A stretch of DNA of 64,000 nucleotides from an uncultured Acidobacteriota bacterium (GCA_963843575.1 CAWJKZ010000018.1:1-64000); one strand, 5' to 3'. Positions 28,557 to 52,936 are shown, counted from the first letter of the stretch. The notes: a model not told the origin generated them from the sequence alone. Program-made: numbers and translations.

Positions 28557-31500
28557 ATGTCGGTCTACGCCCAAACCCGCGTTAGTCCGCGTCAGCTTCC
28601 CGACCACCTGATCCGCGTGCTGCGCCGCCACGCCGACGAACGCCCGCGGCAACCGGCCTGCATCCATCTGCTCAACGGTCAGGCCGATCAAGCCAGTCTG
28701 ACTTACGCCCAGCTCGATCGGCGAGCCCGAGCCATCGCGGCTCGCTTGCAGGACATGGGCGTTGCCAGCCAGTGCGTGCTGCTGGTCTATCCGCCCGGCC
28801 TCGACTTCATTACGGCTTTCTTCGGCTGCCTGTACGCCGGTTGCGTAGCGGTGCCGACCTACCCGCCGCATCGCCACCGCATGCTCGATCGCTTCCAGGC
28901 CGTCGCCGCCGATGCCGGGGCCCGCATCGCCCTGAGCAATGCCTCGAGCGCGGTTCAGTTCCAGGCCATGATGGAAGCGGGGAAAAGCGGTCAAGCGGCC
29001 ACTTCCTCCCAGCTCTCGTGGCTCGCCACCGACGAGATTCCCGACGCCTTGGCCGAGCGTTGGCAAGAACCGGCCATCGCCCGCGACACGCTGGCCATGC
29101 TCCAGTACACTTCCGGCTCGACCAGCCGGCCCAAGGGCGTCATGCTCAGTCACGCGAACCTCATGGCCAACATCCGCGCCATCGATAAGGCTTTCGGCCT
29201 ACAGTACGAGGACAGCAGCGTGTTCTGGCTGCCCATGTACCATGACATGGGGCTGGTGGGCGGCGTTCTGGTCCCGGTGTTCAGCGGGGTGACAAACGTC
29301 TCCATCTCGCCGTCCACGTTCCTCCAGAGCCCCATCACTTGGCTGGCCGCCATCAGCAAGTGCCGGGCCACCATCTCCGGCGGGCCCAACTTCGCCTACG
29401 ATCTTTGTATTCGCAAGATCACCGACGAGCAGCGTGCCACCCTCGATCTTTCCTCCTGGGCCCTGGCCTTCGTCGGCGCCGAGCCCATTGAGCCCGGAAC
29501 GCTCGAACGCTTTGCCGCCGCGTTCGCCCCCTGCGGCTTCAAACCCGGCGCCTTTTATCCCTGCTACGGTTTGGCGGAGGCGACGCTCATGGTCAGCGGC
29601 CCGAGGCGCGACAGCGGCGCGACCGTCGGGACCTTCCGCGACACGGCGCTGACCGAAAACCGCGTTGAGCCCGTGCCCAACGATGCGCCGCAGGCTCGTC
29701 GCCTGGTGGCCTGCGGATCGCCCGTCGGCGGTCTACGCGTGGTGATCGTCGACCCGCACAGCCGCGCGGAGGCCGCCCCTGGCCGCGTGGGCGAAATCTG
29801 GCTTGCCGGCGCGTCGGTCGGTCAGGGCTACTGGAACAAGCCCGGCCAGACCCGGCGTTCCTTCGACGCCCGCCTGAGCGACACGGGCGAAGGCCCGTTC
29901 CTGCGGACCGGCGACCTGGGCTTCATGCGCGAAGGCCAACTCTACGTCACCGGCCGGCTGGACGACCTGATCATCGTCCGCGGCCTGAACCGCTATCCGC
30001 AGGATATCGAAGCCACCGCCCGCGGTAGCCACCCACTGCTGGAAACCGGCTACGGAGCTGCTTTCGTTGCGGACGATCACGGCAGCCAGCGCCTCGTTCT
30101 GGTGCAGGAGGTCGCGCGCAAAGGGAAGGTTAATTTCGCGCCCGTGCTGGATGCGGTTCGAGGGGCGGTGCTCGATGAACATGGCTTGGCCCTGGACGCG
30201 GTCGTGCTGGTGCGCAACGGTACGATTCCCAGGACCTCGAGCGGCAAGATCCAGCGCCATGCTTGTCGTGCTGCCTTCCTGGCCGGGAAGCTCAAGGCCC
30301 TCGCCGAACACCGCGGCTTGCCGGTCGACAATGCCGGCCCGAGAGCCGACACCCGCCCTGGTACCGAAGACGCGGGGTCTTCCACTGCGCGTCCCACCCC
30401 GCACTCTTGGCAAGCCGCTCTGGCCGCCGTCCGCCAGCACGCCTGCGCCTTGGCCGGCGCAGCCTTGCCCGACCTGACACCGAACATGCCCCTTGCCGCC
30501 TTGGGCCTGGATTCGCTGCAGCGCCTGGACCTAGTGGCCAGGCTGGAGAAGACCTTCGCCGGCCGCCTGCCCGACACGGTGTTCAGCCAGGCCCGGACGC
30601 TGGAGGATCTGGTCGAAGCCGTGCAGAAGCACCTGATCGATGTCCCCAGGCCCGATGTTCCCGCCGGCCAGATCCCGCCCGAACACTATGATTTGGCCCG
30701 CTTCCCCGAGTACGGCGAGTCGAAGCGTCAGGAACGCCAGCTGCTGGCGGTCGGCGACAACCCGTATTTCCGCGTCGACCAGGGCGGAGCTGGAAGCGCA
30801 CTCTGCATCGAGGGGCGCCGGCTCGTCGACTTCAGCATCTATGACTACGTCGGTCTGGCCCACGATCCGGAGGTCGCCGCCGCCGCCAAGGCCGCGATCG
30901 ACCGCTATGGCACCAGCGCCGGCGCCAGTCGCCTGGTCTCCGGCGAGAAAGAGGTGCATCGTGATCTGGAGCAGGCACTGGCCGCCTTCCTGGCCACCCC
31001 GGCCGCGATCGCCTTCGTCTCCGGCCATGCCACCAACGTCACAACCATCGGCCACCTGCTCGGGCCGGACGATCTGATCCTCCACGACATTCTGGCCCAC
31101 AACTCGATCGTCCAGGGCGCCATGCTTGCCGGCGCTACGCGCCGCGCCTTTGCCCATAACGATTGGCAGGCCCTCGACACCCTGTTGTCCGAGGTGCGCC
31201 ACCGCTATCGCCGCGTGCTGATCGCCATCGAGGGCGTGTACAGCATGGATGGCGACTTCCCCGAACTGCCACGCTTCCTGGAACTCAGGAAGAAGCACAA
31301 GACGCTGCTGCTGGTCGATGAGGCGCACTCACTCGGCACCATGGGGGCGACCGGCCGGGGCCTCGGCGAGCACTGGGGCGTGGCCCGCTGTGACGTCGAT
31401 CTGTGGATGGGCACGCTTTCCAAGTCGCTGGCCAGTTGCGGCGGGTTCATCGCCGGCTCGACCGAGCTCGTCGAGTACCTCAAGTACACCGCCCCCGGGT

Positions 31501-31919
31501 TTGTCTACAGCGTGGGAATCTCACCGCCCAACGCCGCCGCAGCGCTGGCCGCCCTGACGGTCCTTCAGCGCGAGCCGCAGCGCGTGGCCCGGCTGCGCGA
31601 GTTGGCGACATTGTTCCTGAAACTGACCAGGGAGCGCGGCCTGGACACTGGTTCGGCGGCCGGCACGCCCGTAGTTCCGGTCATCGTCGGAAGCTCGGTC
31701 AAGGCCTTGCGCTTGTCACGCGCCTTGTTCGACCGCGGCTTCAACGTCCAACCGATTCTGCCTCCGGCAGTGCCCGACCGCTCCGCCCGCCTCCGCTTCT
31801 TTATCACCACCAATCACAGCCAGGAACAGATCCGCGCCACGGTCCACGCCACGGCCGACGAACTGGTCAAACTGCAACGAAATGGATATGAGCCGCCGAT
31901 CCATGACGAACCGCGCTGA
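28557..31919 (+). CDS. Fused fatty acyl-AMP ligase - ACP - alpha-oxoamine synthase (serine palmitoyltransferase/AONS-like)
   Basis: FAAL motifs LQYTSGSTSRPKG, WLPMYHDMGL, CYGLAEATL, RTGDLG, PRTSSGKIQR. ACP LGLDSL. AOS motifs DYVGL, SGHATN, HNS, EGVYSMDGD, DEAHS, GTLSKS (PLP Lys). Alternative start 28473. Confidence 0.92.
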   Translation: MSVYAQTRVSPRQLPDHLIRVLRRHADERPRQPACIHLLNGQADQASLTYAQLDRRARAIAARLQDMGVASQCVLLVYPPGLDFITAFFGCLYAGCVAVPTYPPHRHRMLDRFQAVAADAGARIALSNASSAVQFQAMMEAGKSGQAATSSQLSWLATDEIPDALAERWQEPAIARDTLAMLQYTSGSTSRPKGVMLSHANLMANIRAIDKAFGLQYEDSSVFWLPMYHDMGLVGGVLVPVFSGVTNVSISPSTFLQSPITWLAAISKCRATISGGPNFAYDLCIRKITDEQRATLDLSSWALAFVGAEPIEPGTLERFAAAFAPCGFKPGAFYPCYGLAEATLMVSGPRRDSGATVGTFRDTALTENRVEPVPNDAPQARRLVACGSPVGGLRVVIVDPHSRAEAAPGRVGEIWLAGASVGQGYWNKPGQTRRSFDARLSDTGEGPFLRTGDLGFMREGQLYVTGRLDDLIIVRGLNRYPQDIEATARGSHPLLETGYGAAFVADDHGSQRLVLVQEVARKGKVNFAPVLDAVRGAVLDEHGLALDAVVLVRNGTIPRTSSGKIQRHACRAAFLAGKLKALAEHRGLPVDNAGPRADTRPGTEDAGSSTARPTPHSWQAALAAVRQHACALAGAALPDLTPNMPLAALGLDSLQRLDLVARLEKTFAGRLPDTVFSQARTLEDLVEAVQKHLIDVPRPDVPAGQIPPEHYDLARFPEYGESKRQERQLLAVGDNPYFRVDQGGAGSALCIEGRRLVDFSIYDYVGLAHDPEVAAAAKAAIDRYGTSAGASRLVSGEKEVHRDLEQALAAFLATPAAIAFVSGHATNVTTIGHLLGPDDLILHDILAHNSIVQGAMLAGATRRAFAHNDWQALDTLLSEVRHRYRRVLIAIEGVYSMDGDFPELPRFLELRKKHKTLLLVDEAHSLGTMGATGRGLGEHWGVARCDVDLWMGTLSKSLASCGGFIAGSTELVEYLKYTAPGFVYSVGISPPNAAAALAALTVLQREPQRVARLRELATLFLKLTRERGLDTGSAAGTPVVPVIVGSSVKALRLSRALFDRGFNVQPILPPAVPDRSARLRFFITTNHSQEQIRATVHATADELVKLQRNGYEPPIHDEPR

Positions 31920-32856
31920 ACACGTAATCGAAGTCGAGAAACTGACGAAGCGGTACGGGGATTTGCTGGCGGTTAACGACATATCGTTTAGCGTCAGGAA
32001 AGGCGAAGTTTTCGCCTTGCTGGGCCCGAACGGCGCCGGCAAGACCACTACTGTCGAGATAATCGAAACTATCCGCACGCCCACATCGGGGAAAGTGAGC
32101 CTTCTGGGGATGGACGTCACGAAGAAGAAGCACGACATCGTCCCCCGCATCGGCGTCCTCCCGCAGGGTTTCAGCTCGTTCGACAGGATAACGGTCAGGG
32201 AGACCATTCAGTACTACTCGCGGCTTTTCTGCTGCAAAGGCACCGATGTTGACAGGCTGATAGAGCTCGTCAACCTCAAGGACAAGACCAAAGAGCAATA
32301 CAAGAACCTCTCTGGGGGCTTGAAGCAGCGCCTCGGAATCGCGATTGCGCTCGTCAACGACCCCGAGGTCCTGTTCCTCGACGAGCCGTCGACAGGGCTC
32401 GACCCCCGCGCACGGCGCGAGGTGTGGGAAGTCCTGCTGGGCCTGAGACAGAAGGGGACGACGGTTTTTCTCACCACGCACTACATGGAAGAAGCGGAGC
32501 TTATTGCAGACACTGTCGCAATAATCTCGACGGGGAAGATCATTGCGATGGGCACTCCCGGGGAGCTCACCGTAAGCAACGCGAATTACCTGGTCCTCAC
32601 GCTACAGTCCGTCGATGAAAAAGTCTTTGAAATCGTCAAGAAAATGGGCTTCGAGCCCGTCCATGACGACCACAAAGACATCAAGGTCAGGGTGGAGTAC
32701 ACGGACGACATCCAGAAGATACTGAACGCCATCAAGGACGCCGGGGCGTTGTTCCTCAGCTTGGACGTTCGCAAGCCCAACCTCGAAGAGGTCTTCCTCA
32801 AGCTTACTGGCGACGCGCTCTGCGAGGGTCCTGCCGGGGGAAGGGGGGCGGAATGA
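31903..32856 (+). CDS. ABC-2 exporter ATP-binding subunit
   Basis: GPNGAGKTT, LSGG, LDEP, TTHYMEEA; overlaps the upstream stop codon. Confidence 0.93.
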   Translation: MTNRAEHVIEVEKLTKRYGDLLAVNDISFSVRKGEVFALLGPNGAGKTTTVEIIETIRTPTSGKVSLLGMDVTKKKHDIVPRIGVLPQGFSSFDRITVRETIQYYSRLFCCKGTDVDRLIELVNLKDKTKEQYKNLSGGLKQRLGIAIALVNDPEVLFLDEPSTGLDPRARREVWEVLLGLRQKGTTVFLTTHYMEEAELIADTVAIISTGKIIAMGTPGELTVSNANYLVLTLQSVDEKVFEIVKKMGFEPVHDDHKDIKVRVEYTDDIQKILNAIKDAGALFLSLDVRKPNLEEVFLKLTGDALCEGPAGGRGAE

Positions 32857-33968
32857 ACATGCGCGTCGTCGGTGCAAATCTCGTCGTGAGCGTCAAGAGT
32901 TTCTACCGCGAGAAGACCGCAATGTTCTTCACGATTGCGTTCCCGATACTCCTGATACTCGTGTTCGGCACCATTTTCATGGACCAGGAGAACGTGAGCT
33001 TCGACCTTCACGTGCAGGACCTCGATCACACCGAATTCTCGGCGCGGCTCATCGAGACCTTAAAGCTCAACGGGAAGTTCAAGATAATCAGAGTCGAACC
33101 CGCCATCAACGCCACGCAGTACGCCAAGGACAACAAGCTGAACCTTGTCCTCATTATTCCCGAAGGCTATGAAAGGTCCTTTGATCAGCGTATCGAAACC
33201 GACGACCCCAACACAACCGTTACCATAACGTACATATACGACCCCAGCTCTAGTTCGGTGCCCGCAAAGATGCAAATCCTGAACTCGGTCTTCGCCCGGT
33301 TAGACCAGCAGGTGTTCGGGAAGCCTCCGTTCATCAGGACGGTCGAGATATCGATACTCAACAAGAAGTACCGGTTCATCGAGTTCTTCATCCCCGGCGT
33401 CATCGCGATGGCGGTGATGACAGCGAGCCTGTTCGGTACGGTGAACTTGAACACGGAGCTGCGGCAGAAGGGCATCATCAGGAAGCTATCCACCACGCCC
33501 ATCACCCGCACCGAGTGGATACTGTCGAACATCCTGTACCAGTTCATACTCGCGGTCGTATCCACGATTGCGATGCTGCTGGCGGGCTATGCGGTGTTTA
33601 ACGTTAGCTTACAAATTAACGCCTGGCTCCCTTTATTCATTGTGCTTGATGTCATCGCGTTCGTCGGAATCGGGATGATACTCACCCGCTTCGTGAAGGA
33701 GGCACAGAGCGCTGCCGCCGCGGCAAACGCCATCATGTTCCCGATGATGTTCCTCTCGGGGAGCTTCTTTCCCATCGAGATGATGCCGGGCTTCCTGCAG
33801 ACGCTTGCCAGGATACTGCCTCTGTACTACGTGAACGAGGGGCTCCGGGCATCCATGGTATTTGTCGACAACATGACCGCGCTGCGATACTCCGCGATAA
33901 TAGGGATTTTTGCGGCCGTGGTCTTCATCCTGGGCATAATGGCCACCAAATGGGAAGAGGGCAAGTGA
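32853..33968 (+). CDS. ABC-2 exporter permease
   Basis: N-terminal TM, extracytoplasmic loop, FFIPG, FLSGSFFP, LPL; ATGA overlap with the ATPase gene. Confidence 0.92.
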   Translation: MNMRVVGANLVVSVKSFYREKTAMFFTIAFPILLILVFGTIFMDQENVSFDLHVQDLDHTEFSARLIETLKLNGKFKIIRVEPAINATQYAKDNKLNLVLIIPEGYERSFDQRIETDDPNTTVTITYIYDPSSSSVPAKMQILNSVFARLDQQVFGKPPFIRTVEISILNKKYRFIEFFIPGVIAMAVMTASLFGTVNLNTELRQKGIIRKLSTTPITRTEWILSNILYQFILAVVSTIAMLLAGYAVFNVSLQINAWLPLFIVLDVIAFVGIGMILTRFVKEAQSAAAAANAIMFPMMFLSGSFFPIEMMPGFLQTLARILPLYYVNEGLRASMVFVDNMTALRYSAIIGIFAAVVFILGIMATKWEEGK

Positions 33969-34007
33969 TAGCAAAATGAGGAGATTCATGACCCCGAACC
34001 GGAGCAC

Positions 34008-35231
34008 TCAAGAAGCGCCCTGGCTTGGCCAGCTTGGCCCAAGGTTGAAGGCCCGTGCTCCGCGAAAACTCGATTGACGCATGGCAAGCACCCGGCCTCT
34101 GCGCCCCACCCGGTAAGTGATTCCCCGCCACTGGATCTCGCGGCGAAGACCGGCCGCCCCAAGAGCTACACTGAAAACCAGCAAAAACACAGCCCCGGCG
34201 GCCAGCCACCGGACCGGCGGGCACGGCAACGGGTGCAAGAGCCGGATCTGTAGGAAGACCACCATCAGCACCGCAAGATAGAGAGCCGACACGATTGCGG
34301 ACAGTGCTGACGTCAGGCTCATCATAATTGCCACTACCAGCAATGCCGCGGAACAAAGAGCGAGGATCTGCAGGAGAAGACTCCACACGCCTAGCACAGC
34401 CCACATCCCCGGAAAAATAAAACGGACATATTGAAGCTGACGCACCAGCCACTCATACAAGTCGCGCAGATCCAATCCTGTCACCAAAGTCTCGCGGCAC
34501 ACCTGGGGCACCGTGCGCACCCTCACGCCATGCGCCCTGAGGACTCTCGCCAGCGATAAGTCGTCCACCACTGAGGTGCGCCACGTGTCTGCTACCTTCA
34601 GTCGCTCAAATGCCTCTCGCGAGATCGCCATGGCCCCCCCCCACGGCAGGCCGAGACCCGGCACGTTCTGGAAGACATACATAATTTCTACGCAGACAGC
34701 GTAGATCCAGCTCACGAATCCGCCATTTGCAGGCCTGGCAGCATGATAGCCGCTCGTCACCTCCGCTTCGCCGCGGGCAATCGGTGCAACCAAGCGCTCC
34801 AACCATCCGGCAGGAAATCCGTGGCCCGCGTCGGCAAAAACGAGTACAGCGTCACGACCTGAAACTGCAGCGATCCCGGCCAGCAGATTGTGGTTTTTCT
34901 GCCCGCACGCAGTCGCTGGACCTGCACAGACACACCTCGCCGATACTTTCCCCTGGATTGCCGCCTGGACCGTCTCGCTCGCCGGATCTTCGAGGTCCCG
35001 CAGCACAAAGACTGCCTCGAAGGAAGGATAGGTCTGGTTCAGTAGCGAGTGGATCGAGGCTTCAATCGGTCTGTTCACACCGGCGACCGGCATGATCACC
35101 GCCACGCGGCAGCTGGGAGCATCCGTGGACGGCACCGGAATGCCCGTGATGGCGTGTCTGGACATCCATATCAGGCCTGCCATTGATACGGCCCACGCCA
35201 GCATCAATCCGCACATGATCCACTCGATCAT
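34008..35231 (-). CDS. GT2/GT21 ceramide-glucosyltransferase (HpnI-like) glycosyltransferase
   Basis: N-terminal TM; CGQKNHNL, FADAG, WGGAMA, VVDDL, WLVRQ; C-terminal TMs and IQWRGITY. Confidence 0.8.
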   Translation of the reverse strand: MIEWIMCGLMLAWAVSMAGLIWMSRHAITGIPVPSTDAPSCRVAVIMPVAGVNRPIEASIHSLLNQTYPSFEAVFVLRDLEDPASETVQAAIQGKVSARCVCAGPATACGQKNHNLLAGIAAVSGRDAVLVFADAGHGFPAGWLERLVAPIARGEAEVTSGYHAARPANGGFVSWIYAVCVEIMYVFQNVPGLGLPWGGAMAISREAFERLKVADTWRTSVVDDLSLARVLRAHGVRVRTVPQVCRETLVTGLDLRDLYEWLVRQLQYVRFIFPGMWAVLGVWSLLLQILALCSAALLVVAIMMSLTSALSAIVSALYLAVLMVVFLQIRLLHPLPCPPVRWLAAGAVFLLVFSVALGAAGLRREIQWRGITYRVGRRGRVLAMRQSSFRGARAFNLGPSWPSQGAS

Positions 35232-35244
35232 CCCAGCCCCCGGC

Positions 35245-36456
35245 TCAATATCCCATCAGCCCACAACAGCGGGAACAGACCGGCATCAGTCCTTCCGTCG
35301 CGAGACTGCGTCGGAAGGCAACGCAGCGTTCGGAGTTCCACAGTTCCGACAGCGTGGCGGTCTTGACGTTGCCAACAACATAGTCGTGGTAGTCGCGGCA
35401 GGGTGATACATCGCCGTTGCTGTTGATCTCGACAACCTGGAAAATGGAAACACACTGGTCATATCCGAACCGCTCCCGATGGTTGGTGTAGTACGCCGTC
35501 AGTGCCCGCTCCCCGCGCAGGAACGGGATGAAGGTGACCGGAACAGCGCCCGGCTGGCGCGATCTCGCCAGCAAGGCCTCGATCTGGCTGGCGAGGGCGG
35601 CATGATTGTCGGCTTTCCACTGCCCAATCCAGCCGCGGTGGAGTGAGGGCGTGAACCCAAACCGCCGTGAGAAATCCTGATCATGGGCTGCCGCATCCGC
35701 CTCGTCGATCCACCAGGAAAGGTAGAAGACGAAAATATCCACGCGATCCCGAAATCCGTCGTAGATGTCGACGAGATGGGCGCAGTTCTCACGCGAGATC
35801 GTCGTCAGCGAAGCAATCAGCGGCAGGCCGGTTCGGCGCGCCCTCACCCTGTGCACTGCTGCCAGACCTGATTCGATCGCCCGGAAGTTGTCTCCCCGAC
35901 CGGCGGAAGGACGAAGGCGGTTGTGCAGATCGCCGGTGTGCCCATCAATGGAGATTTGCAGAAGGAACAGCGGGGCACGGACCAACAGTTCCGCAGCCGC
36001 CTCGATGCCTGTGCCGTTGGTGGCGATGGCCACCGGGAGATGCAGGCGCGACCCAGCTTCCACGAGGTCCAGGATCCCGCGGTAGAGCATCGGCTCGCCG
36101 CCCCAAAAGTACAGAATCGGCCGATGCCCGTGCTCTACCAGATTCTCAAATAGCTGTTGGTACCGCTCAGGAGACACCTCATCCTGTTTCAAAGCCTTGG
36201 GATCGCACTGGTGAAGGAACCCGCGCTCGCCCCACTGACCGCAGGTGCGGCACCGCAGGTTGCAGAGATCGGTAATGCGGATGCCCACCTGCCGGATGCG
36301 CCTGGCATGGCCCCTTGCGGAGCAGGGATACAGGGTGTCGAAAAACCACTTCTCTCCCTGCAAGACCGACATCTTGGCTAAAATCCGCGGATGTGCGGCC
36401 ACTCGCAGGAGGTTGGCCGTCAATACTCGTGAGCTAATCGCACTGCGCTGCACCAA
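35245..36456 (-). CDS. Radical SAM/SPASM protein
   Basis: CNLRCRTC, WGGEP, TNG, ISIDG; C-terminal C...GDVSPC...GN...CSRCC SPASM motif. Confidence 0.9.
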   Translation of the reverse strand: MVQRSAISSRVLTANLLRVAAHPRILAKMSVLQGEKWFFDTLYPCSARGHARRIRQVGIRITDLCNLRCRTCGQWGERGFLHQCDPKALKQDEVSPERYQQLFENLVEHGHRPILYFWGGEPMLYRGILDLVEAGSRLHLPVAIATNGTGIEAAAELLVRAPLFLLQISIDGHTGDLHNRLRPSAGRGDNFRAIESGLAAVHRVRARRTGLPLIASLTTISRENCAHLVDIYDGFRDRVDIFVFYLSWWIDEADAAAHDQDFSRRFGFTPSLHRGWIGQWKADNHAALASQIEALLARSRQPGAVPVTFIPFLRGERALTAYYTNHRERFGYDQCVSIFQVVEINSNGDVSPCRDYHDYVVGNVKTATLSELWNSERCVAFRRSLATEGLMPVCSRCCGLMGY

Positions 36457-36605
36457 CCCACCTCCGCAGGAATCTGTTCCGTGGCCTACGCTATCCGACC
36501 GAATCAGCCCGATTTTGTGTCCCCCCTCCCCATCTATGCTGCAAAAACCAGCCTATTCCGTACAAGCGACTTCATAACCGATTGCGACTGCGATGCCGAT
36601 TCCGA

Positions 36606-37877
36606 CTACGGCTTCCCCGAAGTCGCAGGCGGATGCTCTTCGGGTTTTGAGGCGTTTGCATCTCCGTTTTTAGGAACGGCCCGCACCCAATCGCCGAAGT
36701 TTATCAGCTCTTCCATCCGGCATGACCAGACGAGTCTGTCCTCCCACACGGTGATGTCCGGGCACCCGTCACACATGCTGAGAGCGCCGCTCTCGGTGAA
36801 GTCCGCCGGTTGGATGATCATGATCGATTGCATGTGGAGTTTCCTGAACAGCAATGCCGGTGAACGGGCGGCATCGTGCAGATAGGCAAGAGCGGTGCGG
36901 CTCAAGCCTTTGTCGAACGGGGCAAGCAACAGCATCGCCTTGCCCCTGCCGTGCACCTTCGGCTTCGTGTAGGCCAGATATGACCCGTTCAGCAGGTGAT
37001 GAAGCGTTTGGGAAAGCTCCATGAATTTCGGGCCCGTGTAGCCGAAGATCTTGTCCTTCGTCCCGATGCGCATGGTCAGCAGCCACTTGAAATGGTCCGG
37101 ACGCTCCGTGCCGTTGAGATACGCCGAAGGCTGGAAGTCCGGATAGCGCGAACGTATGGCCTCGACGACGTCCGTCGACATGGCGTAGATCTGCCGCTCT
37201 TCGTCGACGACGTAGGCGATTGGCGCCATGTCGATTGTTTTGCTTCCGACAAGGTAATCATAGCCTTTGCGCATGGAACCCGAGCGGTAAGCAATAAACA
37301 CGAGGACTTGGACGATATCGATGTGGTTCTGCCCCCAGGCCACGATCTCAGGGACATCCTTGAGTGTGTCCTCGTAGACGGTGGCATTGAAAGCACAGGA
37401 TATGTCGCCAACCTCGGCCAGCATGAGAGCATATTGCAGCCGCAGTTCATTTAACTCGATTTCGGTCTTCCCCTTCATGTGGGGGCGCTGCTGTTTGCTG
37501 TCGATGTGGAATGTAAATCCTGCAACGCCAGCCTTCTTAAGAGCGACGAGTTTCTCTTTTGACAGCCAAAGGCCGTTGGTGTTGATGATCGGTTTTTGGC
37601 CGTCGGCGGCGATCATCTCCACGATCTTCTCGATCTGAGGGTGCATCAGCGGGTCTCCCCCGGCAATAGAGACGCTATCCGCGTTGCGCAGGCGATTGAA
37701 TATGTCGAGTTCTTTCCGAACCTGTTCGAGCGACTTGTGCGCGTCCGGGTTGTTCTTGCGATAGCACCCCTGGCAGTAAAGGTTGCAGGCACTGGTCGGC
37801 TCTAACCAGCTGATGGCATTGTCAGGGAGGTTCCAGGGTAGGCGGTAGAGCCTGCGATGGTTCAATGGCGCTGGCAT
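36606..37877 (-). CDS. Radical SAM protein with C-terminal CxxC...C motif
   Basis: CNLYCQGC, AGGDPL, NTNG; C-terminal MCDGCPD...WSCR. Confidence 0.88.
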   Translation of the reverse strand: MPAPLNHRRLYRLPWNLPDNAISWLEPTSACNLYCQGCYRKNNPDAHKSLEQVRKELDIFNRLRNADSVSIAGGDPLMHPQIEKIVEMIAADGQKPIINTNGLWLSKEKLVALKKAGVAGFTFHIDSKQQRPHMKGKTEIELNELRLQYALMLAEVGDISCAFNATVYEDTLKDVPEIVAWGQNHIDIVQVLVFIAYRSGSMRKGYDYLVGSKTIDMAPIAYVVDEERQIYAMSTDVVEAIRSRYPDFQPSAYLNGTERPDHFKWLLTMRIGTKDKIFGYTGPKFMELSQTLHHLLNGSYLAYTKPKVHGRGKAMLLLAPFDKGLSRTALAYLHDAARSPALLFRKLHMQSIMIIQPADFTESGALSMCDGCPDITVWEDRLVWSCRMEELINFGDWVRAVPKNGDANASKPEEHPPATSGKP

Positions 37878-38375
37878 GAGATCATCCTTTCCGATCGTAC
37901 GAGCCCCAAAACCGGAAAACTTGCCGACGATAATACAACATCACGGACGGACTTCTTGAGTGCTATTGGCTCTTTCACAGAATGGCCGAGTGAAGTCGTT
38001 TTTGCGCTCAGGCCTGCTTCCTCGCAGGACGAGACGCCGCACATAACAGCTACTGCGATTGTGCGACTGGATCTTTGCGCAGGCGGCGGCGTAACAAGGC
38101 TGCAACCTGGGCTGGCGTTGACGCCGGAAAATCGGCCCGTCGGGCTCAACCGGGTTCTTCTCATTTCGCAGCAAGTGCGGGGGCGTGGGTCCGGATATCC
38201 GGGAGCGGCAGGCGGCGGGGGACGGGGTTATCCGGCAGGAAGGAGGGACAAGCATTCACGGCCCGGTTGAATCCGCCATTCCGGCGAAGCCGATCAACAA
38301 CCGCCAGGCCCGAGGGGGGGGCAGGGGACTTCCGGGTTTAAGGGCACCCTGCGCCATCGCATTGTCGCAAAGCCC

Positions 38376-38530
38376 GATCAGCCGGCACACCAGGTGCTGT
38401 CCGATAAAGCCGATGGCCTGGATGACCAGCACGGATTCTGCATCTCTGGTTTTCATCGCTTAGATTGGGATTGCAGTCTCACGCGAACAAGCGATAATCA
38501 AGGATAGTTCCTCCGCCATCATCGTGAGAT
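38376..38530 (-). pseudogene. Diverged partial duplicate of the epimerase N-terminus and its divergent promoter
   Basis: MKTRDAESVLVIQAIGFIGQHLVCRLI versus MKTREAESVLVTGASGFIGQHLVRRLI (43795). 38465-38530 resembles 43960-44027. Confidence 0.8.
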
Positions 38531-38945
38531 GAAAGCCGTGGCGCGAGCGAGAGACTCGCTTTGCCTGCTCAGAACAGAGCGACTGCCCGTGCGACCGGTC
38601 GGACGATGGCGAACGCGGGCCTTCGTCTTTGGGCCCAGGACGCGAGATGCTTTTATGCCCGGACTAAGGGCTCGCGCAAGAATAGTTTGGCATTTTGCTC
38701 CGGCTCCCATGCCCGAATGTAGCACTATCAGAAAACTGCAATTGTCCGCTGGGCCTGGGAGCCATCGCCCTGCGGGGCGCGGCGGCGGGCGGGCATCTGC
38801 GGCCTTGCCGCTCCTCGACGATGTCCCCACACCGCCTGCGTCGCGGCGCCTTGCACCTGCCCGCCCGGCGCTCGCGCCAAAATGCCAACCTATTCCTGCG
38901 CGAACCCTAAGGGTTTCCGCCGGGCCGGAGCCCGGGACAAGGGGC

Positions 38946-39950
38946 ATGCCGCAACCGATCGCAGGGCGTTACCGGGCCGTGTTCATTTCCCCGCATCTCG
39001 ACGATGCGATCTTCTCCTGCGGCGGAACCATCGCGCGGCTGATCAAGGACGGGCCGGTGCTGGTCGTGAATGTCTTCTCTCGATGTACGGAAGACGCCAG
39101 AAGGTACGCATTGGTTCTTGGCGAGGAGCGGCGCCGCGAGGAGAAGGCTGCGGCAAGCTTCCTGGGCTACGACGCAATCTGCCTGGAGGAAACCGACGCC
39201 TTCCTGCGCCAGGGCTCGAATCGCTCGATCGGTAGACTGTTCAGCTCCCCGACTGCGGCAGACCTCGCGGACCTGCCCCGGATCACCGGGAGGTTGGCGG
39301 AGTGCTTGGCGGCCGTTGACAGCGACAACCTGTATATCCCCCTTGGCGTGGGTTGGCACGTGGATCACGTCCTCTGCCACCAGGCGGCGCTGAACCTGGC
39401 ATCCGGGTTCAGCGGCCGGGTCTTCTACTACGAAGATTCGCCGTATTGCTTCATTCCCAACGCGGTGCGTTGTCGGCTCGACGAGATCGGCCATTGGGCG
39501 GAGGCGCCCCTCAGGGGGTCGCTAACCCGCGAGTGGTGGAAGTCCTGCAGCCACTACCTCCGGAGCGCAGTCATGCGCCACGTCCAGCCTCGGCCTGTTC
39601 GCTGGGCGGCCAGCGTGGTCGTAGCCGCCTATCTGCTGGGCCTAATGCGGCGGCATCGTGCGGCTGGAGATGCCCGGAGCCCGGCAAGGTGTCCGCGTCT
39701 TAGCCCGCAATTGGAGGACATCTCCGCGCAGGAAGAGCTTAAGCTCGACGCCATGATGTGTTATGAGTCGCAGTTCCGAGCCCTGTTTCATGGGCGGCCC
39801 GATTGCGAGGAACTCCACAGGAACTATTCGCGAACGATGAACGATCGCGACGCCGTCTTCGAGAGATTCTGGACCTTGAGCTGGGAGCCGGCATCGCCGT
39901 GCAGGCAGCGCGGTCCGAGCAGGCATCAAGGGGTGGAGGCCGTGGTATGA
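38946..39950 (+). CDS. PIG-L/LmbE-family N-deacetylase
   Basis: ISPHLDD, GGT, RRREE, HVDH, YEDSPY, K...YESQ, ERFW. Confidence 0.88.
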   Translation: MPQPIAGRYRAVFISPHLDDAIFSCGGTIARLIKDGPVLVVNVFSRCTEDARRYALVLGEERRREEKAAASFLGYDAICLEETDAFLRQGSNRSIGRLFSSPTAADLADLPRITGRLAECLAAVDSDNLYIPLGVGWHVDHVLCHQAALNLASGFSGRVFYYEDSPYCFIPNAVRCRLDEIGHWAEAPLRGSLTREWWKSCSHYLRSAVMRHVQPRPVRWAASVVVAAYLLGLMRRHRAAGDARSPARCPRLSPQLEDISAQEELKLDAMMCYESQFRALFHGRPDCEELHRNYSRTMNDRDAVFERFWTLSWEPASPCRQRGPSRHQGVEAVV

Positions 39951-41191
39951 GTGGTAATCCGGAGTTGCCGGGCCGCGGCAACGGGACGGCCACGAGGATA
40001 GCGGAACTGGCCCCTCTGCCCGTTCGCAATGGGAGCTTGTCGGAAGACCGCAATCGGGAAACTCCGCAGCGCTGCCTGAACATCTGCATGGTATCGGACG
40101 ATTTCCTGCCGGCCGCGACGGGCTGTGGCGTGGTGGTCCAGTGGGCAGCCAGGGAACTGGTCAAGAGGGGCCACAGCGTCAGCGTGGTCACCAGCCGCCG
40201 AAGGGGCCAACCCGGTCTGGAAACGTGGCACGGGATCCGCGTCCACCGGACCTTCTCGATCAGGTTGTACGGCTACTACCAGGCCCTGCCCAGCCAGTCC
40301 GCCCTCCGGCGGATCCTGAACGAGAACGACTTTGACATCATCCATTACCACTATCTCTTCGTCCTGCTGATGCGCATGCGCGCCGCCGCCGCCTCGATGC
40401 GGGCCAGGCATGTCTACACCTACCACATGACCGTAGATCTGTTGACGCAGCCGTGGCTGATGAAGCCCTTCCGTCGGGTCATCTTCAGGCGGCACGTGGA
40501 ATACTGCAACCGGTTCGATTTGATCCTGGCGCCGTCTGCACACCTGGTGGAACAGATACGGGAGTACGGGATCACGGCCCGGACCGAGTACCTCAGCAAT
40601 CCCATCGTGTTCGACAGCCGGGCGGAACAGCAGCGGTCGCCCGAGGATGGTCCCTTCGTGGTGCTCTTCGTCGGACGTCTTTCGCCGGAGAAGAACCTGC
40701 CTTATCTCATCAGGGCTTTCGCGGGGTTGGTGCGGCAACAGCCTTGCTCGGAGCTGAGGATCGTCGGCGAGGGTAGAGAGAAGCCCAGGCTTATGAGGTT
40801 GGCCTCCAAGCTTGGCCTGGAGAGGCAGGTGAAGTTCCTGGGTTTTGTCGAGAACTCCTTGCTGGTGCCGCACTACGCTGCCGCAGACGCTTTTGTCCTG
40901 CCATCGCTTTCGGAGACGCAGGGTCTGGTTGCGCTGGAAGCCATGTGGTTCGCGAAGCCGGTGATCGTCACCAATCGCATCGTGGCTGCCCGCGAGCTGG
41001 TGGAGGATGGGCGGAACGGGTTCATAGTTGACTCGGACTCCGTGGAGGACCTCACCGGGAAGCTGGCCCTGCTCAGCCGCAATCCCGGACTCGCCCGAGA
41101 GCTGGGTCAGGGGGGCCAGAGGCTTGCGGGGCGCTATTCACCGGAACAGATAATCAGCCGGCTGGAGCGGCACTACCTGGATCTGATGTGA
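39947..41191 (+). CDS. GT4 glycosyltransferase
   Basis: SDDFLP, YTYH, FVGRLSPEKN, VGEG, PSLSETQGLVALEAM (EX7E). Confidence 0.92.
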   Translation: MSGNPELPGRGNGTATRIAELAPLPVRNGSLSEDRNRETPQRCLNICMVSDDFLPAATGCGVVVQWAARELVKRGHSVSVVTSRRRGQPGLETWHGIRVHRTFSIRLYGYYQALPSQSALRRILNENDFDIIHYHYLFVLLMRMRAAAASMRARHVYTYHMTVDLLTQPWLMKPFRRVIFRRHVEYCNRFDLILAPSAHLVEQIREYGITARTEYLSNPIVFDSRAEQQRSPEDGPFVVLFVGRLSPEKNLPYLIRAFAGLVRQQPCSELRIVGEGREKPRLMRLASKLGLERQVKFLGFVENSLLVPHYAAADAFVLPSLSETQGLVALEAMWFAKPVIVTNRIVAARELVEDGRNGFIVDSDSVEDLTGKLALLSRNPGLARELGQGGQRLAGRYSPEQIISRLERHYLDLM

Positions 41192-42761: not shown

Positions 42762-43795
42762 TCAGAGCCATCCGGCCTGGCGATACCATTGGGCCGTTTC
42801 GCGCAGGCGTTCGGCCAACGTGGCCGCGGGGGACCAACCCAACTGCGTGCGGGCCTTGGCGGATGAGCACGTCCACGACCCGGCCAGGGCTTCGGCCATC
42901 TTGTCGCTGTTCACCCAACCGGGACGTTGCCGCATGCGCGCCCAGCGAGTCGCCGCAAAGCCCGACCAGTCGCATGAGCGGTCCCGGGCATGTGCACCAC
43001 CGTGGCCCGCTTCTTTCCCAATGCCTGTGGCCATGGCCTGTCCCAGTTCGGCATACGTCGGATCGTGCCCCGGCCGCCATGAAGTAGACACCTTGGCCCG
43101 GCGCTCCGTCGGGGTGCAGACGCTCGCCTTTCTCGGCGGCCAGGAGCAGGAGTGCGACCAGGTCGGCCACGTGGATCAGCGAGAACGCGTCGTTCCTCCC
43201 GGCCGGGCACGACATGGAGCCCCGAGCGGGCGATCGGCCGGAACATTTCAAGCACGCCCCGGTCGCCGGGGCCGAAGACGATCGGCGGACGCACGATGGT
43301 GATCTCCATTTCTCCGGCATGCCTGGCCGCGGCCAGTTCGCCCGCCAGCTTGCTGCGACCGTAGGCGGAAACAGGTGCGGGCGAATCGCCTTCCACGCGA
43401 GGTTGGTCGCCGGCGCAAGGCCCCGCCGCGGCCAGCGAGGAAACCACGATCAACACCGGCCGCTCGGCGCGGTCCGCACAGGCAGCCGCGACGGATTCGA
43501 CGCCGCCCGCGTTCACGCGTGCGAAATCGGCCGTCCGCACCGCCTTCACCAGGCCCGCCAGGTGGAACACCACGCCGGCCTGCGACTCCGCCAGCGCCCG
43601 TTCAATGCCGGCGCGATCGGTCGCATCGCCCACGATGAGTTGGGCGCCTGATGATCGTAGTTCGTCGATGCGCGACGTGGCCCGCACCAGGCACGACACC
43701 CGGTCGCCACGCTCGATCAGCCGGCGCACCAGGTGCTGTCCGATAAAGCCGCTGGCCCCAGTGACCAGCACGGATTCTGCTTCCCTGGTTTTCAT
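42762..43795 (-). CDS. NAD-dependent epimerase/dehydratase (extended SDR; CerR/3-ketosphingolipid reductase-like); frameshifts in the 3' third
   Basis: VTGASGFIG, HLAG, VSSLAAAGP, YGRSK, RPPIVFGP, then SLIHVADL and KARTQLGW...WYRQAGWL* in other frames. Confidence 0.8.
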
Positions 43796-44034
43796 CGTCG
43801 TACCCTCCGCCGGGCGGCAACGATCACCAACCATAATTCTTGTCGGGATTATACGCGGTTCTCCAGTAAGAACCAACCCTCGCGGCCGGGCGGCGCCGGC
43901 CCAACGATTGAAAAGGCTTCTGCAAAATGGGTCAGGACTGGCGGTTTTCATCACTCAAATTGGGCTTGCAGTACTACGCGGACGAGAGATAATCAAGGAG
44001 AGATGCTCCACGATGATCGTGAGGTGACAGTCCT

Positions 44035-45202
44035 ATGGAAAATCCCGTCTCAAACGGAACGCTCATGGCCGGCATCGAGATCGTTGTTGTGGAAGGAGGT
44101 TCGGAACTAAAGGACTTCATCGACCTCCCCTGGAATCTCTATGCCGAGTACCCCAGATGGGTTCCTCCCCTCAAGAAGGAGGTTCGCCGGCTGCTGGATC
44201 CCCGCCGGCACCCTTTCTGGTCGTCTGCCGAGCGCCGGCTCTTTCTGGCCCGGCGCGGTTCGCAGGCGGTGGGCAGGATCGCGGGCATCATCGATCGTCG
44301 CTATAATGAGTTCCACGACGAACAGATGGGCATTTGGGGATTCTTCGAATGCGCTGACGATCCGGCGGCGGCAGCGGCCCTCTTTTCCGCCGTGGAGACG
44401 TGGGCTCGCCGGAAGGGCATGGCCTTCGTCAGGGGGCCGCTCAACCCGTCCACCAATTACGAGGTCGGGCTGCTCGTCGAGGGCTTCGATTATCCGCCGG
44501 CGTTGATGATGGCTTACAACCCGCCGTACTACTCCAGATTGGTCGAATCGTGCGGTTTCGCCAAAGAGAAGGACTTGGTCGCCTTCCTGATCGATGGCGA
44601 TTACCGGCTTCCCGAGTGGATGGACAGTCTGGCTGGACGGATAGCCCGAAAAAAAGGCATCCACATCCGGCCCTTTCGTCCCAAGGATGAGGACGCCGAG
44701 TTTGCCCGGATCAAGGAGATCTACAATGACTCCTGGTCCGCTAACTGGGGTTTCGTCCCCCTGAGCGATGAGGAGATGCGGGACATTCAGAAGAGCGTGA
44801 TGACCTTCGCGGATCCCGACCTGGCTTTCTTCATCTATTACGAGGACGAACCGGCGGCGGTCTGCGTAATCTTCCCCGACATCAACCCATTGCTCAAGCG
44901 TCTCAACGGGCGGATCGGCCTGCTGGGTTTGCTGAAGGCGCTCCTCTATCGCCGGGAGATCACCGGATTGCGATGTTTGATGTTCGGGATCAAGGACAAG
45001 TACCGGCAATTGGGAATCCCCATGTTGGCCTTCCACCACATCTTTGAGGTTGTGCAGGCAAAAGGACAAATACCGTTCTCTGGAGTTGGGCTGGACCCTG
45101 GAGGACAATGAGGCCGTCAACACCTTGGCCGTGGAAGCGGGCGCAAGACCATACAAGAGATATCGCATATTCAGAAAATCTTTGTCATTCCGCGTCGCGT
45201 AA
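44035..45202 (+). CDS. GNAT N-acyltransferase of the bacterial ceramide synthase (bCerS)-like family; frameshift at ~45060
   Basis: FIDLPW..Y...WVPPL, GRIAG, GFFE, GPLNPSTNYEVGLL.EGF, MMAYNPPYY, NDSWSANWGFVP. The C-terminus ELGWTLEDN...KRYRIF is in a shifted frame ending TAA 45202. Confidence 0.82.
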
Positions 45203-51200: not shown

Positions 51201-52936
51201 TCATGTCTGGAGGCGCCACGGGGATCAGCGCCCACCTGGCCCGCAGTTTGGTGCCCTTCGCGCCTCGCCTGGTCTTTCTTGGCAGGACCCAGCTGGAACC
51301 GCACCCCGAGCCTTCGTCTTCTGCATCTGCCCCTGACAAATCCCGAGCCCGCGAGATCGCCCAGACCCTGGCGGATTTGCACGCCTCAGGAATCGAGGCC
51401 ACGTACCTGACCTGCGATGTAACCGACCCCGAGGCGGTTCGTGTTGCCCTGGGCGAGGTGGCCGGCCGCTATGGCCGGATCGACGGCATCATTCACGGCG
51501 CCGGCGTCCTCCGGGACGGTTTCCTCGACCAAATGACCCCTGAGGATTTTTCCCTCGTCGCGGACGTCAAATTCCTGGGAGCCTGGAATCTATTCTCGGC
51601 GGCAGAGGGGGCGGGCTTGAGGTTCTTCGTGGGCCTTTCCTCGGTGGCGGCCATCCAGGGAAATCCCGGCCAGACCAACTACGCTGCCGCCAACCGCATG
51701 ATGTCGGCGCTACTCCGATACCTCCGCCGCAGGAACGGCGCCATCCGCTTCAAGGCGTTGATGCTGCCCCCGGTCGAGGGGACGGGCATGGCCGAGAACC
51801 CGGAGGTCCGGGACTTGCTCAGACGCCGAGGCGTGGCCTACGTCCACGTCCATGAGCTTGCCGGCCTGTTCTGCCGGGAACTCTTCGTCGCCCCGGCCGA
51901 CGACGATTGGGTCATGTTCATCAGGACCCTGCCCTCCGTGAAGACGGCACCGCTCGGTGATATCAGCCACCCCGCGCTCAGTGGACAACTGGATGGCGGC
52001 CCCGTGGCCTTCAGCCCTCGCGACTTCCCCATGATCGATGGCATCTCTTGCCTGGACCTCCGCCGGGAACACTTGGAGGCCTCCAGGTCCTTCTCCAGGC
52101 AGAACGATCTGTGGATCGCGGATCACCGGCCACTCAAGTCCCTCGCCCATCCTCTGGTTTCCGCCGCCATGATGCTCGAGACCTTCATGGAATCCGCCCG
52201 CATCCTCTATCCCCACCTCCAGGTGCGGGGCGTGCGCCAGGTGCGTTTCATGGACATGATCTCCTGTCCTCCTGAGGTTCCCCGGTCTTCCAGAATCTCC
52301 TGCCGCCGAGCCGGCGTCGACCCTCGTGAGGTAGTATGCGAGGCCTCTCTATCCGTACAAGAGATCTCCCCCACGGGCCGGCTGGCCGACCGCTTCATCC
52401 CACACTGCACGGGCCAGGTGCTCCTCGGCGGCGGGCGTGGAGAACTCGCCGAGTGGTTCCAGGATTTTCCTGTCCGTCCGGATGAGCTGCGGACTCCGCC
52501 CGTGAATCATGAAAAAGTGCTCAAATGGTACGAAGAACGAACCGGACTCAACGGCAGATATCGCGTGCTGGAGGTCATTGACGGTGCCGGTCCGGGGCTG
52601 ATACGGGGCCGAACCATTTACCGGGAGACCGGTGATTTCGCGCATCTGCACGCCGCGCGCTACCAATACTCTCCCTACCTGTTCGAGGCCCTGATGCAGT
52701 TGGCCGCCTTCCACATGCTGGCCATAGACCCACACGATCGCCGCTCGATGCTCCCCACAGAGATCGGCGAGATGCGGTTTCTGCGCCAATGCCGGCCGGG
52801 CGAACAGATAACCCTGGAGGCCCGCCTGCGGGTTCAGGACCACGAATCTCTCGCCTGGGACGCCCGGGGACTTGACGATCAAGGCCTCACTATAATGCAG
52901 ATTCGTACGATGCGCATGCACTGGGTTTCGCCGTGA
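45232..52936 (+). CDS. Iterative type I PKS/FAS (PfaA/PfaD-like): ER-like, ER(FabK), KS, AT, ACP, KR, DH; frameshift at ~50100
   Basis: LKGCEAAG; PFIQGAM, EGYEAGGH, AGGI, QMGTAY; KS ACATS/ECHATS/GHTLG; AT GHSLGE/AFHS; ACP-like DLRRNLSIRSS; KR SGGATGI/HGAG/YAAAN; DH IADHRP/FEALMQ. The frame upstream of Met 50207 is open and ACP-like. Confidence 0.9.

Follow-up and report, generated by a model that had tools for sequence, protein, structure and literature searches.

A fused fatty acyl-AMP ligase, acyl carrier and α-oxoamine synthase from an uncultured Acidobacteriota bacterium: a candidate self-loading long-chain-base synthase encoded beside ceramide-gene homologues

We analysed a 64,000-nt window of DNA from an uncultured Acidobacteriota bacterium (GCA_963843575.1 CAWJKZ010000018.1:1-64000; host genome 88% complete) in which one gene encodes a FAAL (fatty acyl-AMP ligase) domain, an acyl carrier protein (ACP) domain and a pyridoxal phosphate (PLP)-dependent α-oxoamine synthase (AOS) domain. 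This tri-domain fusion is a real, conserved protein and not an artefact. Judged from its domains, its conserved residues and the genes around it, the protein is probably a self-loading long-chain-base synthase for an exported ceramide-like lipid, encoded in a transferable cassette. An earlier reading made from the sequence alone had proposed that this single chain unites fatty-acid activation, the carrier and PLP-dependent condensation; the Pfam domains and the closest homologues bear this out. The counterpart that it named, three separate components in Caulobacter, agrees with the published AasR, AcpR and Spt proteins (PMC9386255).

The tri-domain fusion is a conserved architecture

The gene occupies most of an open frame on the plus strand (28473-31919), and its ATG at 28557 is preceded by GGGAGA (28542-28547), 9 nt 5′ of the start. 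This choice of start is matched by tblastn alignments in several related loci, which begin at residue 1 of the query. Pfam recognized all three parts of the protein (Table 1), the Aminotran_1_2 score of 148.7 bits against a gathering cut-off of 19.7 placing the C-terminal part in the α-oxoamine synthase family. The AOS motifs named in the sequence-only reading are all present in the translation, SGHATN at residues 822-827, HNS at 848-850 and GTLSKS at 952-957, as are a carrier serine motif, GLDSL (650-654), and the adenylation motifs YTSGSTSRPKG (184-194) and SSGKIQR (561-567). The PP-binding domain with its serine motif and an ACPS-family 4′-phosphopantetheinyl transferase (PPTase) gene in the same cluster together mark the system as carrier-dependent.

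The families PF00501, PF00550 and PF00155 occurred together in all of the best 120 of 7654 hits, which were 72-91% identical and 940-1180 aa long, and several clusters with the FAAL-ACP-AOS architecture were found in the ESM Atlas. Since all 120 of these homologues share the three families, the fusion is a conserved architecture rather than a chance read-through or an assembly join. The tri-domain open reading frame (ORF) is itself free of frameshifts, unlike other genes of the same assembly. Its G+C content (0.65-0.66) lies at the top of the range for the window (0.55-0.66).

The N-terminal part appears closest to FAALs and not to acyl-CoA synthetases. Its best matches in the Protein Data Bank (PDB) were 7r7e/f/g (‘Polyketide synthase’, 539 bits), 3kxw (448 bits) and FadD32 entries (∼333 bits), and the 15 best PDB sequences were all of FAAL type (7r7e-g, 3kxw, FadD32, FadD23, 3pbk and FadD28), several of the FadD32-type entries bearing the depositor name ‘Acyl-CoA synthase’. 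FAAL models also headed the NCBIfam ranking, the best scoring 429.7 against a cut-off of 775 and none exceeding its cut-off. The nearest relatives of this domain were cyanobacterial FAAL-ACP modules, with 44-49% identity and matches extending to ∼4.9 kb.

The AOS domain belongs to a separate clade

The AOS domain aligned best to the serine palmitoyltransferase (SPT) of Sphingobacterium multivorum (3a2b/8guh, 240 bits), followed by plant LCB2a (216 bits), a Thermus AOS (206 bits), Escherichia coli KBL (197 bits) and BioF (179 bits). The PLP-stacking His (H848), the Asp/His pair (D921 and H924), the Schiff-base Lys (K956) and a C-terminal Arg (R1080) aligned to identical residues of the S. multivorum enzyme. 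The segment GTLSKSLASCGGF is almost the same as the S. multivorum SPT motif, and GTLSK also occurs in the Kbl-like gene of the same genome. The Ser that stands at position −2 relative to the catalytic Lys (GTLSKS) was rejected as a guide to the substrate, as the Kbl-like gene has it too. Among the other NCBIfam equivalogs, the AOS part scored below the cut-offs for bioF (350 against 426 bits), Kbl (280 against 460 bits) and a CqsA-like autoinducer synthase (151 against 428 bits).

For the phylogeny, reference AOS genes were labelled by NCBIfam score (Spt 6, Kbl 7, BioF 7 and HemA 2). Three of the six Spt references exceeded the curated cut-off and the other three scored 539-555 bits, above the E≤1e-130 level; in the Spt reference search, only the Caulobacter control matched at that level. 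The tree (IQ-TREE, LG+C20, 49 rows and 393 columns) was built without the SgaB protein of Pseudomonas fluorescens (PfSgaB) and without any Bacteroidota Spt. The Spt, Kbl and HemA clades were each supported at 100/100 and the BioF clade at 99/95. A separate 24-row clade, also at 100/100, held the Burkholderia sp. Ax-1719 AOS and all 12 tri-domain AOS domains, together with six ACP-AOS di-domains, AOS proteins that stand alone (among them one with the label Nostoc sp.) and an AOS from Bremerella that lies within a 2586-aa open frame. This clade stands apart from Kbl, BioF and HemA, so that the domain phylogeny proposed in the sequence-only reading places the AOS outside those three clades and outside proteobacterial Spt.

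The Burkholderia AOS is ∼58-61% identical to the AOS domain studied here. In its locus, the gene order is a sulfatase-family gene, a 2540-aa KS-AT-DH-ER-KR-ACP polyketide synthase (PKS), an LpxC-like gene, the AOS gene and a GNAT gene, and a KpsS/KpsC-family gene lies ∼1 kb upstream on the same contig. The arrangement looks like that of wcbQRST, of which these genes may be orthologues. By sharing a clade with an AOS encoded beside a monomodular PKS, the domain appears to be an SPT of the PKS-associated type. The suggestion that the enzyme is of RkpG/WcbT type rather than a classical Spt thus stands on the phylogeny, through the 100/100 clade shared with the Burkholderia capsule-type AOS; the motifs on which it was founded do not discriminate.

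The cultured planctomycete Bremerella sp. JC770 carries two AOS of this clade (contig C29:183167-184279 and contig C12:732173-733303), one in a tri-domain protein (locus L059, 1141-aa frame, 45% identical) and one at the end of a 2586-aa PKS-like frame.

Neighbouring genes are homologues of the ceramide pathway

The Caulobacter-type ceramide set comprises AasR, AcpR, Spt, CerR and bCerS (PMC9386255, PMC11087976), and the published operon contains a synthetase, a reductase, a carrier and Spt, with bCerS nearby (PMC9386255, PMC10411912, PMC11087976). We compared the cluster with five alphaproteobacterial genomes that were chosen solely for an Spt hit. The best hit of the FAAL domain lay in the Spt operon in four of the five (33-36% identity, E 1e-67 to 1e-79, the next hit being at 1e-22), and in the same four genomes it abutted a reductase gene. 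The best hit of the extended short-chain dehydrogenase/reductase (SDR) of the cluster was 34-37% identical and 330-380 bp from Spt, again in four of the five; this is the reductase gene that the FAAL hit abutted. The tandem-GNAT protein had a single strong homologue in every one of the five genomes (33-36%, E 1e-60 to 1e-72), located 7-8 kb from Spt in three of them. The layout in these genomes agrees with the published one. With these best hits in or near Spt operons, the window cluster holds homologues of AasR, CerR and bCerS. Together with the Spt-like AOS and the carrier they would make up the ceramide set, with three of its five functions in one chain.

Neither the GNAT-like protein nor the ORFs upstream matched any Pfam or NCBIfam family. 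An AlphaFold2 model of the former (predicted local distance difference test score 80.7) matched the tandem GNATs 5kf1, 2wpw and 7q3a in Foldseek at E 1e-13 to 1e-12, these three being amine N-acyltransferases, and also matched mycothiol synthase and Eis; the fold assigned here is therefore that of a predicted model. In NCBIfam, the SDR scored 112 bits with HpnA and 76 bits with OleD, both below cut-off.

Synteny was examined in 27 related loci, many of them cut by contig ends, with the genes of the window as queries. The SDR was present in 17 of the 27, the ABC ATPase with its ABC-2 permease in 15, the tandem GNAT in 14, a PKS subunit in 11, a PAP2 gene in seven, the PPTase in six and a B12-radical SAM gene in three. 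The ABC ATPase follows the tri-domain gene in 15 of these loci; in the window its ORF overlaps the tri-domain stop by 38 nt. PKS subunit 1 was 81-92% identical in nine loci and PKS subunit 2 was conserved in nine. All of these genes (SDR, ABC, GNAT, PKS, PAP2, PPTase, B12-radical SAM and tri-domain) are contiguous in one locus, L023. The PPTase gene is directly upstream of the tri-domain gene in six loci (L014, L015, L020, L023, L026 and L029), and the PKS, PPTase and tri-domain genes are contiguous in four (L023, L029, L014 and L020). A scan for promoters and terminators across 28100-34300 gave counts at the level of shuffled sequence (1 against 1.1 and 6 against 4.7).

Table 1. Features of the tri-domain gene and its cluster in the window
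Feature	Coordinates	Strand	Details and basis
Tri-domain gene, FAAL-ACP-AOS	28557..31919	+	1120 aa; ORF, translation, Pfam, NCBIfam
FAAL domain	28620..30302	+	AMP-binding, residues 22-426 (E 1e-70); C-terminal subdomain, DIP2-like AMP C-terminal domain, residues 470-582 (Pfam)
Acyl carrier domain	30426..30623	+	PP-binding, residues 624-689 (Pfam, E 4.5e-13); phosphopantetheine Ser653 in GLDSL = nt 30513-30515
PLP-dependent AOS domain	30822..31847	+	Aminotran_1_2, residues 756-1097 (Pfam, E 3e-43); Schiff-base Lys956 = nt 31422-31424
ABC transporter ATPase, DrrA/NodI-like	31882..32856	+	Pfam ABC_tran; NCBIfam drrA 268 bits, below cut-off
ABC-2 permease	32853..33968	+	Pfam ABC2_membrane_3, ABC2_membrane; conserved with ATPase
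PAP2 remnant, 24 aa	34000..34071	+	tblastn of L023 PAP2, 67% over 24 aa
Window-specific block A	34008..37877	-	GT2/GT21-like 34008-35231, radical SAM/SPASM 35245-36456, radical SAM 36606-37877; Pfam
Duplicate of SDR 5′ end and divergent leader	38364..38535		Repeat families D1, D2; 80-88% to 43703-43797 and 43943-44030
Window-specific block B	38529..41191	+	PIG-L family deacetylase 38529-39950, GT4 glycosyltransferase 39803-41191; Pfam; BshA-like 101 bits, below cut-off
Extended-SDR reductase, CerR-position homologue	42765..43807	-	Three frames, at least 2 frameshifts; compared with intact L023:17561-18613
Tandem-GNAT N-acyltransferase, bCerS-position homologue	44035..45127	+	Frame changes near 45056-45069 (tblastn)
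PKS subunit 1: N-terminal region, FabK/PfaD-type ER, KS, AT	45232..50112	+	Pfam NMO, ketoacyl-synt, Acyl_transf_1; NCBIfam PfaA-like, FabK
PKS subunit 2: ACP, KR, DH	50207..52936	+	Pfam PP-binding, KR, PS-DH
PPTase	52933..53727	+	Pfam ACPS

Proposed pathway and its alternatives

From these homologies we infer a pathway, including its individual chemical steps, its amino acid, its chain length and the cargo of its exporter. The FAAL domain would adenylate a free fatty acid and pass the acyl group to the phosphopantetheine arm at Ser653 of the carrier, as expected of these domain families, the arm having been primed by the PPTase of the cluster. The PLP domain, through Lys956, would then condense the acyl chain on the carrier with a small amino acid, for which the catalytic residues and the clade make L-serine the most likely choice, with loss of CO2 to give a 3-keto long-chain base. 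The tandem GNAT, as a bCerS homologue, would N-acylate the base and the extended SDR, as a CerR homologue, would reduce the 3-keto group, yielding a ceramide-like lipid that would leave the cytoplasmic membrane by way of the co-operonic ABC-2 transporter. An unusual, probably very long, acyl chain could come from the split iterative PKS (ER-KS-AT plus ACP-KR-DH), destined for one of two positions: the base, as in SgaAB, or the N-acyl group, via the GNAT.

Several points weigh against this proposal. The AOS part lies below every NCBIfam Spt cut-off (Spt CFB 310 against 640 bits, beta 274 against 500, alpha 205 against 670), and its 24-row clade joins Spt weakly (82/89), outside the six proteobacterial Spt references. 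The names CerR and bCerS for the alphaproteobacterial hits are provisional ones, taken from gene position and from the Caulobacter gene order. The link to the characterized PfSgaB would run through the Burkholderia protein as a stand-in, the tree holding neither PfSgaB nor a Bacteroidota Spt. In the window, reading the SDR takes three frames, the GNAT shifts frame close to its end and a remnant is all that is left of PAP2; at this place the cluster may be in decay, although rpoB and kbl of the same assembly are split as well. Biochemical data on a tri-domain member were absent from the literature searched. The identity of ∼39% to S. multivorum SPT is not diagnostic, because a Nostoc AOS with the same identity made no 3-keto-dihydrosphingosine (PMC8895605).

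The roles of the FAAL-ACP part and the PKS could also be coupled differently. The FAAL-ACP part might prime the PKS, the PKS elongate the chain and the AOS off-load the very long product, as SgaB does for SgaA, giving the same class of product; we regard this as an unlikely arrangement. It draws on the association of other clade members with PKSs (the Burkholderia AOS after a monomodular PKS, the Bremerella AOS in its 2586-aa frame), on PKS subunits in which Pfam found no thioesterase domain, on the contiguity of PKS, PPTase and tri-domain genes in the four loci listed above, on the cyanobacterial FAAL-ACP modules as nearest relatives of the FAAL domain and on the SgaAB precedent (PMC12134224). 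Against it, a genome-wide search at E≤1e-60 recovered the positive control but no homologue of PKS subunit 1 in any of the four genomes searched that carry a tri-domain locus lacking the PKS. The tri-domain enzyme is therefore independent of the PKS, which would be an add-on. The carrier also directly precedes the AOS, mirroring AasR-AcpR-Spt, where the loaded carrier is the direct substrate of Spt (PMC9386255).

An equally doubtful variant, raised in the sequence-only reading, keeps the chemistry of the self-loading synthase and replaces serine with alanine, glycine or another amino acid, so that the bases would be 1-deoxy or modified in some other way. In its favour, the clade is separate from classical Spt, no equivalog cut-off was reached, and environmental 1-deoxyceramides and unusual bases are on record (PMC11334938). 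The CerR and bCerS homologues in the cluster speak against this variant. Moreover, PfSgaB, the one PKS-associated AOS to have been characterized, is almost exclusively specific for L-serine yet makes unusually long C24-C28 bases (PMC12134224), which makes a non-standard chain length likelier than a non-standard amino acid.

Somewhat less likely again is that the lipid serves as the anchor or carrier of a capsular or exo-polysaccharide, as proposed for the rkp and wcb loci, rather than as a bulk membrane sphingolipid. In favour of this are a KpsS/KpsC-family gene ∼1 kb from the closest AOS of a cultured organism, the ABC-2 exporter next after the tri-domain gene, the occurrence of wcbR/rkpA PKS genes in capsule clusters (PMC3908369) and, in the window, the GT2, GT4 and PIG-L genes inserted behind a copy of the leader. 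On the other side, no KpsS/KpsC, KpsD/E or polysaccharide polymerase gene was seen in the 27 loci, where the queries were the genes of the window only, and the inserted sugar genes occur in none of the relatives.

Synthesis of a secreted α-hydroxyketone or aminoketone signal by a CqsA/LqsA-like enzyme, with the ABC-2 pump as its exporter, would suit the membership of the AOS family and the position of the exporter gene, and is very improbable in view of the low score with the autoinducer-synthase model and of FAAL, PKS, N-acyltransferase and reductase neighbours that fit a membrane lipid. Least credible is a role of the BioF type, with 8-amino-7-oxononanoate as the product, for biotin: among the NCBIfam equivalogs the AOS part scores best with bioF, homologues are named ‘8-amino-7-oxononanoate synthase’ by the Joint Genome Institute and only one other AOS gene (Kbl-like) was found in the 88%-complete genome, but the score is below the bioF cut-off, the domain lies outside the 99/95 BioF clade and is fused to a long-chain FAAL, the neighbours are ceramide-gene homologues and, unlike a housekeeping gene, no full-length copy was found in 60 relatives.

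Distribution and probable horizontal transfer

The distribution of the gene is patchy. The 60 relatives without a full-length copy comprised one genome of the same genus, 35 of the same family and 24 of the same class; eight of them had an ACP-AOS or AOS part at 49-53% identity and three had a FAAL part at 41-48%. The RpoB fragment of the host matched mostly Acidobacteriota-labelled records, at 64-70% identity. Far closer tri-domain homologues were found in metagenome-assembled genomes (MAGs) of other groups, the identities of the tri-domain protein and of the RpoB fragment being 89-90% and 70% for a Terriglobia MAG, 84-85% and 69% for an NC10 MAG, 86-87% and 62% for a Deferrimicrobiaceae MAG, 80% and 50% for a Verrucomicrobia MAG and 78% and 55% for a Planctomycetia MAG. 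Mis-binning is disfavoured by the size of two of the contigs that carry these copies (1.08 Mb and 0.87 Mb). The cassette thus seems to have moved horizontally between distant soil and wetland bacteria (78-90% for the tri-domain protein against 50-70% for the RpoB fragment).

In a Methylomirabilota MAG (locus L021), the tri-domain protein was 87% identical, the SDR 39-44% and the GNAT 36%; these uneven identities point to a mosaic cassette whose parts were exchanged independently. In a sister genus within the same family, eight of 16 genomes (G021, G023, G027, G032-G035 and G037; loci L081-L084) have an ACP-AOS di-domain of ∼505-548 aa without the FAAL; it matches residues 635-1109 at 49-53% identity and is a member of the same AOS clade.

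Among public sequencing runs, none contained half or more of the words of the gene, the best reaching a fraction of 0.30. Contigs from three metatranscriptome libraries (soil and wetland) spanned every one of the gene's 30 bins with a likeness of 85% or more, which reached 97-98% in some pieces. This lends weak support to transcription of close relatives, the evidence being contigs, in which DNA carry-over is possible.

Relation to known systems

SgaA, a monomodular iterative PKS, and SgaB, an AOS, produce C24-C28 sphinganines and phosphoglycerol sphingolipids in P. fluorescens MYb115 (Peters et al. 2025, PMC12134224). Purified SgaB is an SPT almost exclusively specific for L-serine, and 6101 homologous PKS-AOS clusters were counted, the leading genera being Burkholderia (3452), Bordetella, Methylobacterium, Sinorhizobium (241), Pseudomonas (225) and Rhizobium (142). 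In 12 of the 20 supplementary files of that paper there was no mention of the Burkholderia accession, Acidobacteri* or Planctomyc*, and a 21-nt primer printed in it, a route to PfSgaB, had no match in the genome contigs searched. Like SgaAB, the system described here brings together a PKS-associated AOS, an iterative type I PKS and a reductase, which would make sphingoid bases, the common clade being deduced by way of the Burkholderia stand-in. Whereas SgaB stands alone and is fed by the PKS, the present AOS is fused to its own FAAL and carrier; SgaA is one KS-AT-DH-ER-KR-ACP chain, and the PKS here is two proteins with a FabK/PfaD-type ER; and the reductase is an extended CerR-like SDR instead of a KDSR-like classical SDR. 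The cluster goes beyond Sga in its tandem GNAT, its ABC-2 exporter and, in relatives, PAP2. The hosts, too, differ, being Acidobacteriota, Planctomycetota, Verrucomicrobiota, Methylomirabilota and others as against the mainly proteobacterial ones of the Sga survey.

WcbR/WcbT of Burkholderia and RkpA/RkpG of rhizobia are PKS-AOS pairs of capsule loci. They differ from the present system in having no FAAL-ACP fusion and in their single-chain PKS and capsule context; the Burkholderia sp. Ax-1719 AOS, at 58-61% identity and in the same 100/100 clade, is the point of likeness to the WcbT type. SgaAB occurs in the same genera (Burkholderia, Sinorhizobium, Rhizobium, Nitrosomonas and others) as the PKS of the wcbR/rkpA capsule loci (PMC3908369), and PMC12134224 makes no mention of wcb, rkp or capsule. 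By analogy, SgaAB and wcbR/rkpA may be the same system, and the long-sought ‘lipid carrier’ function of rkp-1 and wcbR-T may be sphingoid-base synthesis.

As in the Caulobacter pathway, a dedicated synthetase would load a dedicated carrier for Spt, followed by an acyltransferase and a reductase, the homologues being 33-37% identical. In contrast to the three proteins of that pathway, there is one polypeptide, whose AOS is not a member of the proteobacterial Spt clade, and the cluster has a PKS and an exporter in addition. According to PMC11087976, no flippase or transporter for bacterial sphingolipids has been identified.

The A-CP-AOS layout was catalogued in 2013 for Microscilla marina A1ZVW4 and Blastopirellula marina A3ZWL3, with product and cluster type given as ‘?’ (PMC3870968). 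The AOS part was modelled there on SPT 3A2B at 42% identity, and Synechococcus PCC 7002 B1XHP8, an ‘AMP-binding enzyme’, was also modelled on SPT. The domain order is the same as here; that source, a bioinformatic catalogue, made no link to ceramide genes, PKS, exporter or transfer. Some Spt homologues have been described as ‘part of longer protein sequences’ (Ding et al. 2024, PMC11334938). A characterized FAAL-ACP-AOS fusion was not found in the full-text literature searched, beyond which further papers may exist; fusions and FAALs go unmentioned in PMC9386255, and the survey of FAAL architectures in PMC8460268 does not include FAAL-ACP-AOS.

Significance of a possible mobile cassette for ceramide-like lipids

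A wider interpretation, which we offer tentatively and hold with less confidence than the enzyme's proposed role, is that the cluster could be a compact mobile cassette for making ceramide-like lipids without a classical Spt. It would consist of the fused AasR-AcpR-Spt-type enzyme, the bCerS and CerR homologues, an optional PKS for very long chains, the first dedicated bacterial sphingolipid exporter and head-group genes that are swapped, PAP2 in relatives and the GT21-like/PIG-L/GT4/radical-SAM set here. On this tentative interpretation, its hosts would be peat, wetland and soil bacteria of the Acidobacteriota, Planctomycetota, Verrucomicrobiota, Methylomirabilota, Chloroflexota and other groups.

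Bacterial sphingolipids are widespread, and their producers are recognized by classical Spt together with CerR and bCerS (PMC11334938). As the fused enzyme falls under all NCBIfam Spt cut-offs, annotation relying on curated cut-offs would not call it Spt, although the rest of the pathway would travel with it. If correct, the cassette would put names to unrecognized producers of environmental sphingolipids, and the ABC-2 pair directly after the tri-domain gene would be a candidate for the missing transporter, as a sphingolipid flippase or exporter. It would also be an unusually clear case of a membrane-lipid pathway transferred across phyla in soils and wetlands. The fused enzyme would be a natural single-chain version of the AasR/AcpR/Spt relay, useful for the study of carrier-to-PLP channelling and possibly as a biocatalyst for amino-ketone lipids.

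Rearrangement and frame damage in the window

In relatives, the region between the permease and the SDR contains PAP2 with or without the B12-radical SAM gene. In the window, PAP2 is replaced by a window-specific insertion (34008-42493) of GT2/GT21-like, radical SAM/SPASM, radical SAM, PIG-L, GT4 and DctP-family genes. Apart from one weak 29% match for the SPASM gene, the 27 related loci gave no hit to any of these. The rest of the 88%-complete genome yielded no PAP2 homologue, and the gene is intact in the seven loci that have it. Based on their families, the inserted genes could equip the lipid with a head group, a sugar or a cyclitol. The combination of glycosyltransferase, deacetylase and radical SAM genes recalls the hopanoid head-group chemistry of HpnI, HpnK and HpnJ, with scores for block A far below the NCBIfam cut-offs (HpnI 79 bits, HpnH 53 bits).

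The insertion also contains a copy of the 5′ end of the SDR gene with its divergent leader, in which tblastn detected a remnant of the SDR N-terminus (38376-38456). Since this copy of the leader stops at the start codon of PIG-L, the sugar genes may be co-regulated with the cluster. An insertion with a copied leader would be a head-group swap. The original leader holds a near-palindrome, CACGATGATCGTG, just 5′ of the GNAT start, which may be a shared operator.

The frameshifts in the SDR and GNAT genes have parallels in the same assembly, where rpoB (contig C24:252860-257103) has at least five frame changes and the Kbl-like gene (contig C10:7625-8771) is in two frames. Since these genes are also split, assembly indel errors are a likely cause of the SDR and GNAT frameshifts, with decay as the alternative. 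The assembly seems rich in such errors, and pseudogene calls in this genome are unsafe. Frame damage of the same kind was seen in locus L029. An ORF at 42490-43320 (‘unk276’) was rejected as a gene, being the out-of-frame part of the SDR.

Upstream of the cluster, at 6967-10098 and 13196-24529, the window carries an OMP_b-brl_4 outer-membrane protein and a set of genes for the utilization of sugar acids and polysaccharides (PcRGLX-like, a LacI regulator, an SMP-30 lactonase, GH88, an SDR, an MR/MLE enolase, DUF4432 and a melibiase-like gene), which are unrelated to the tri-domain gene.

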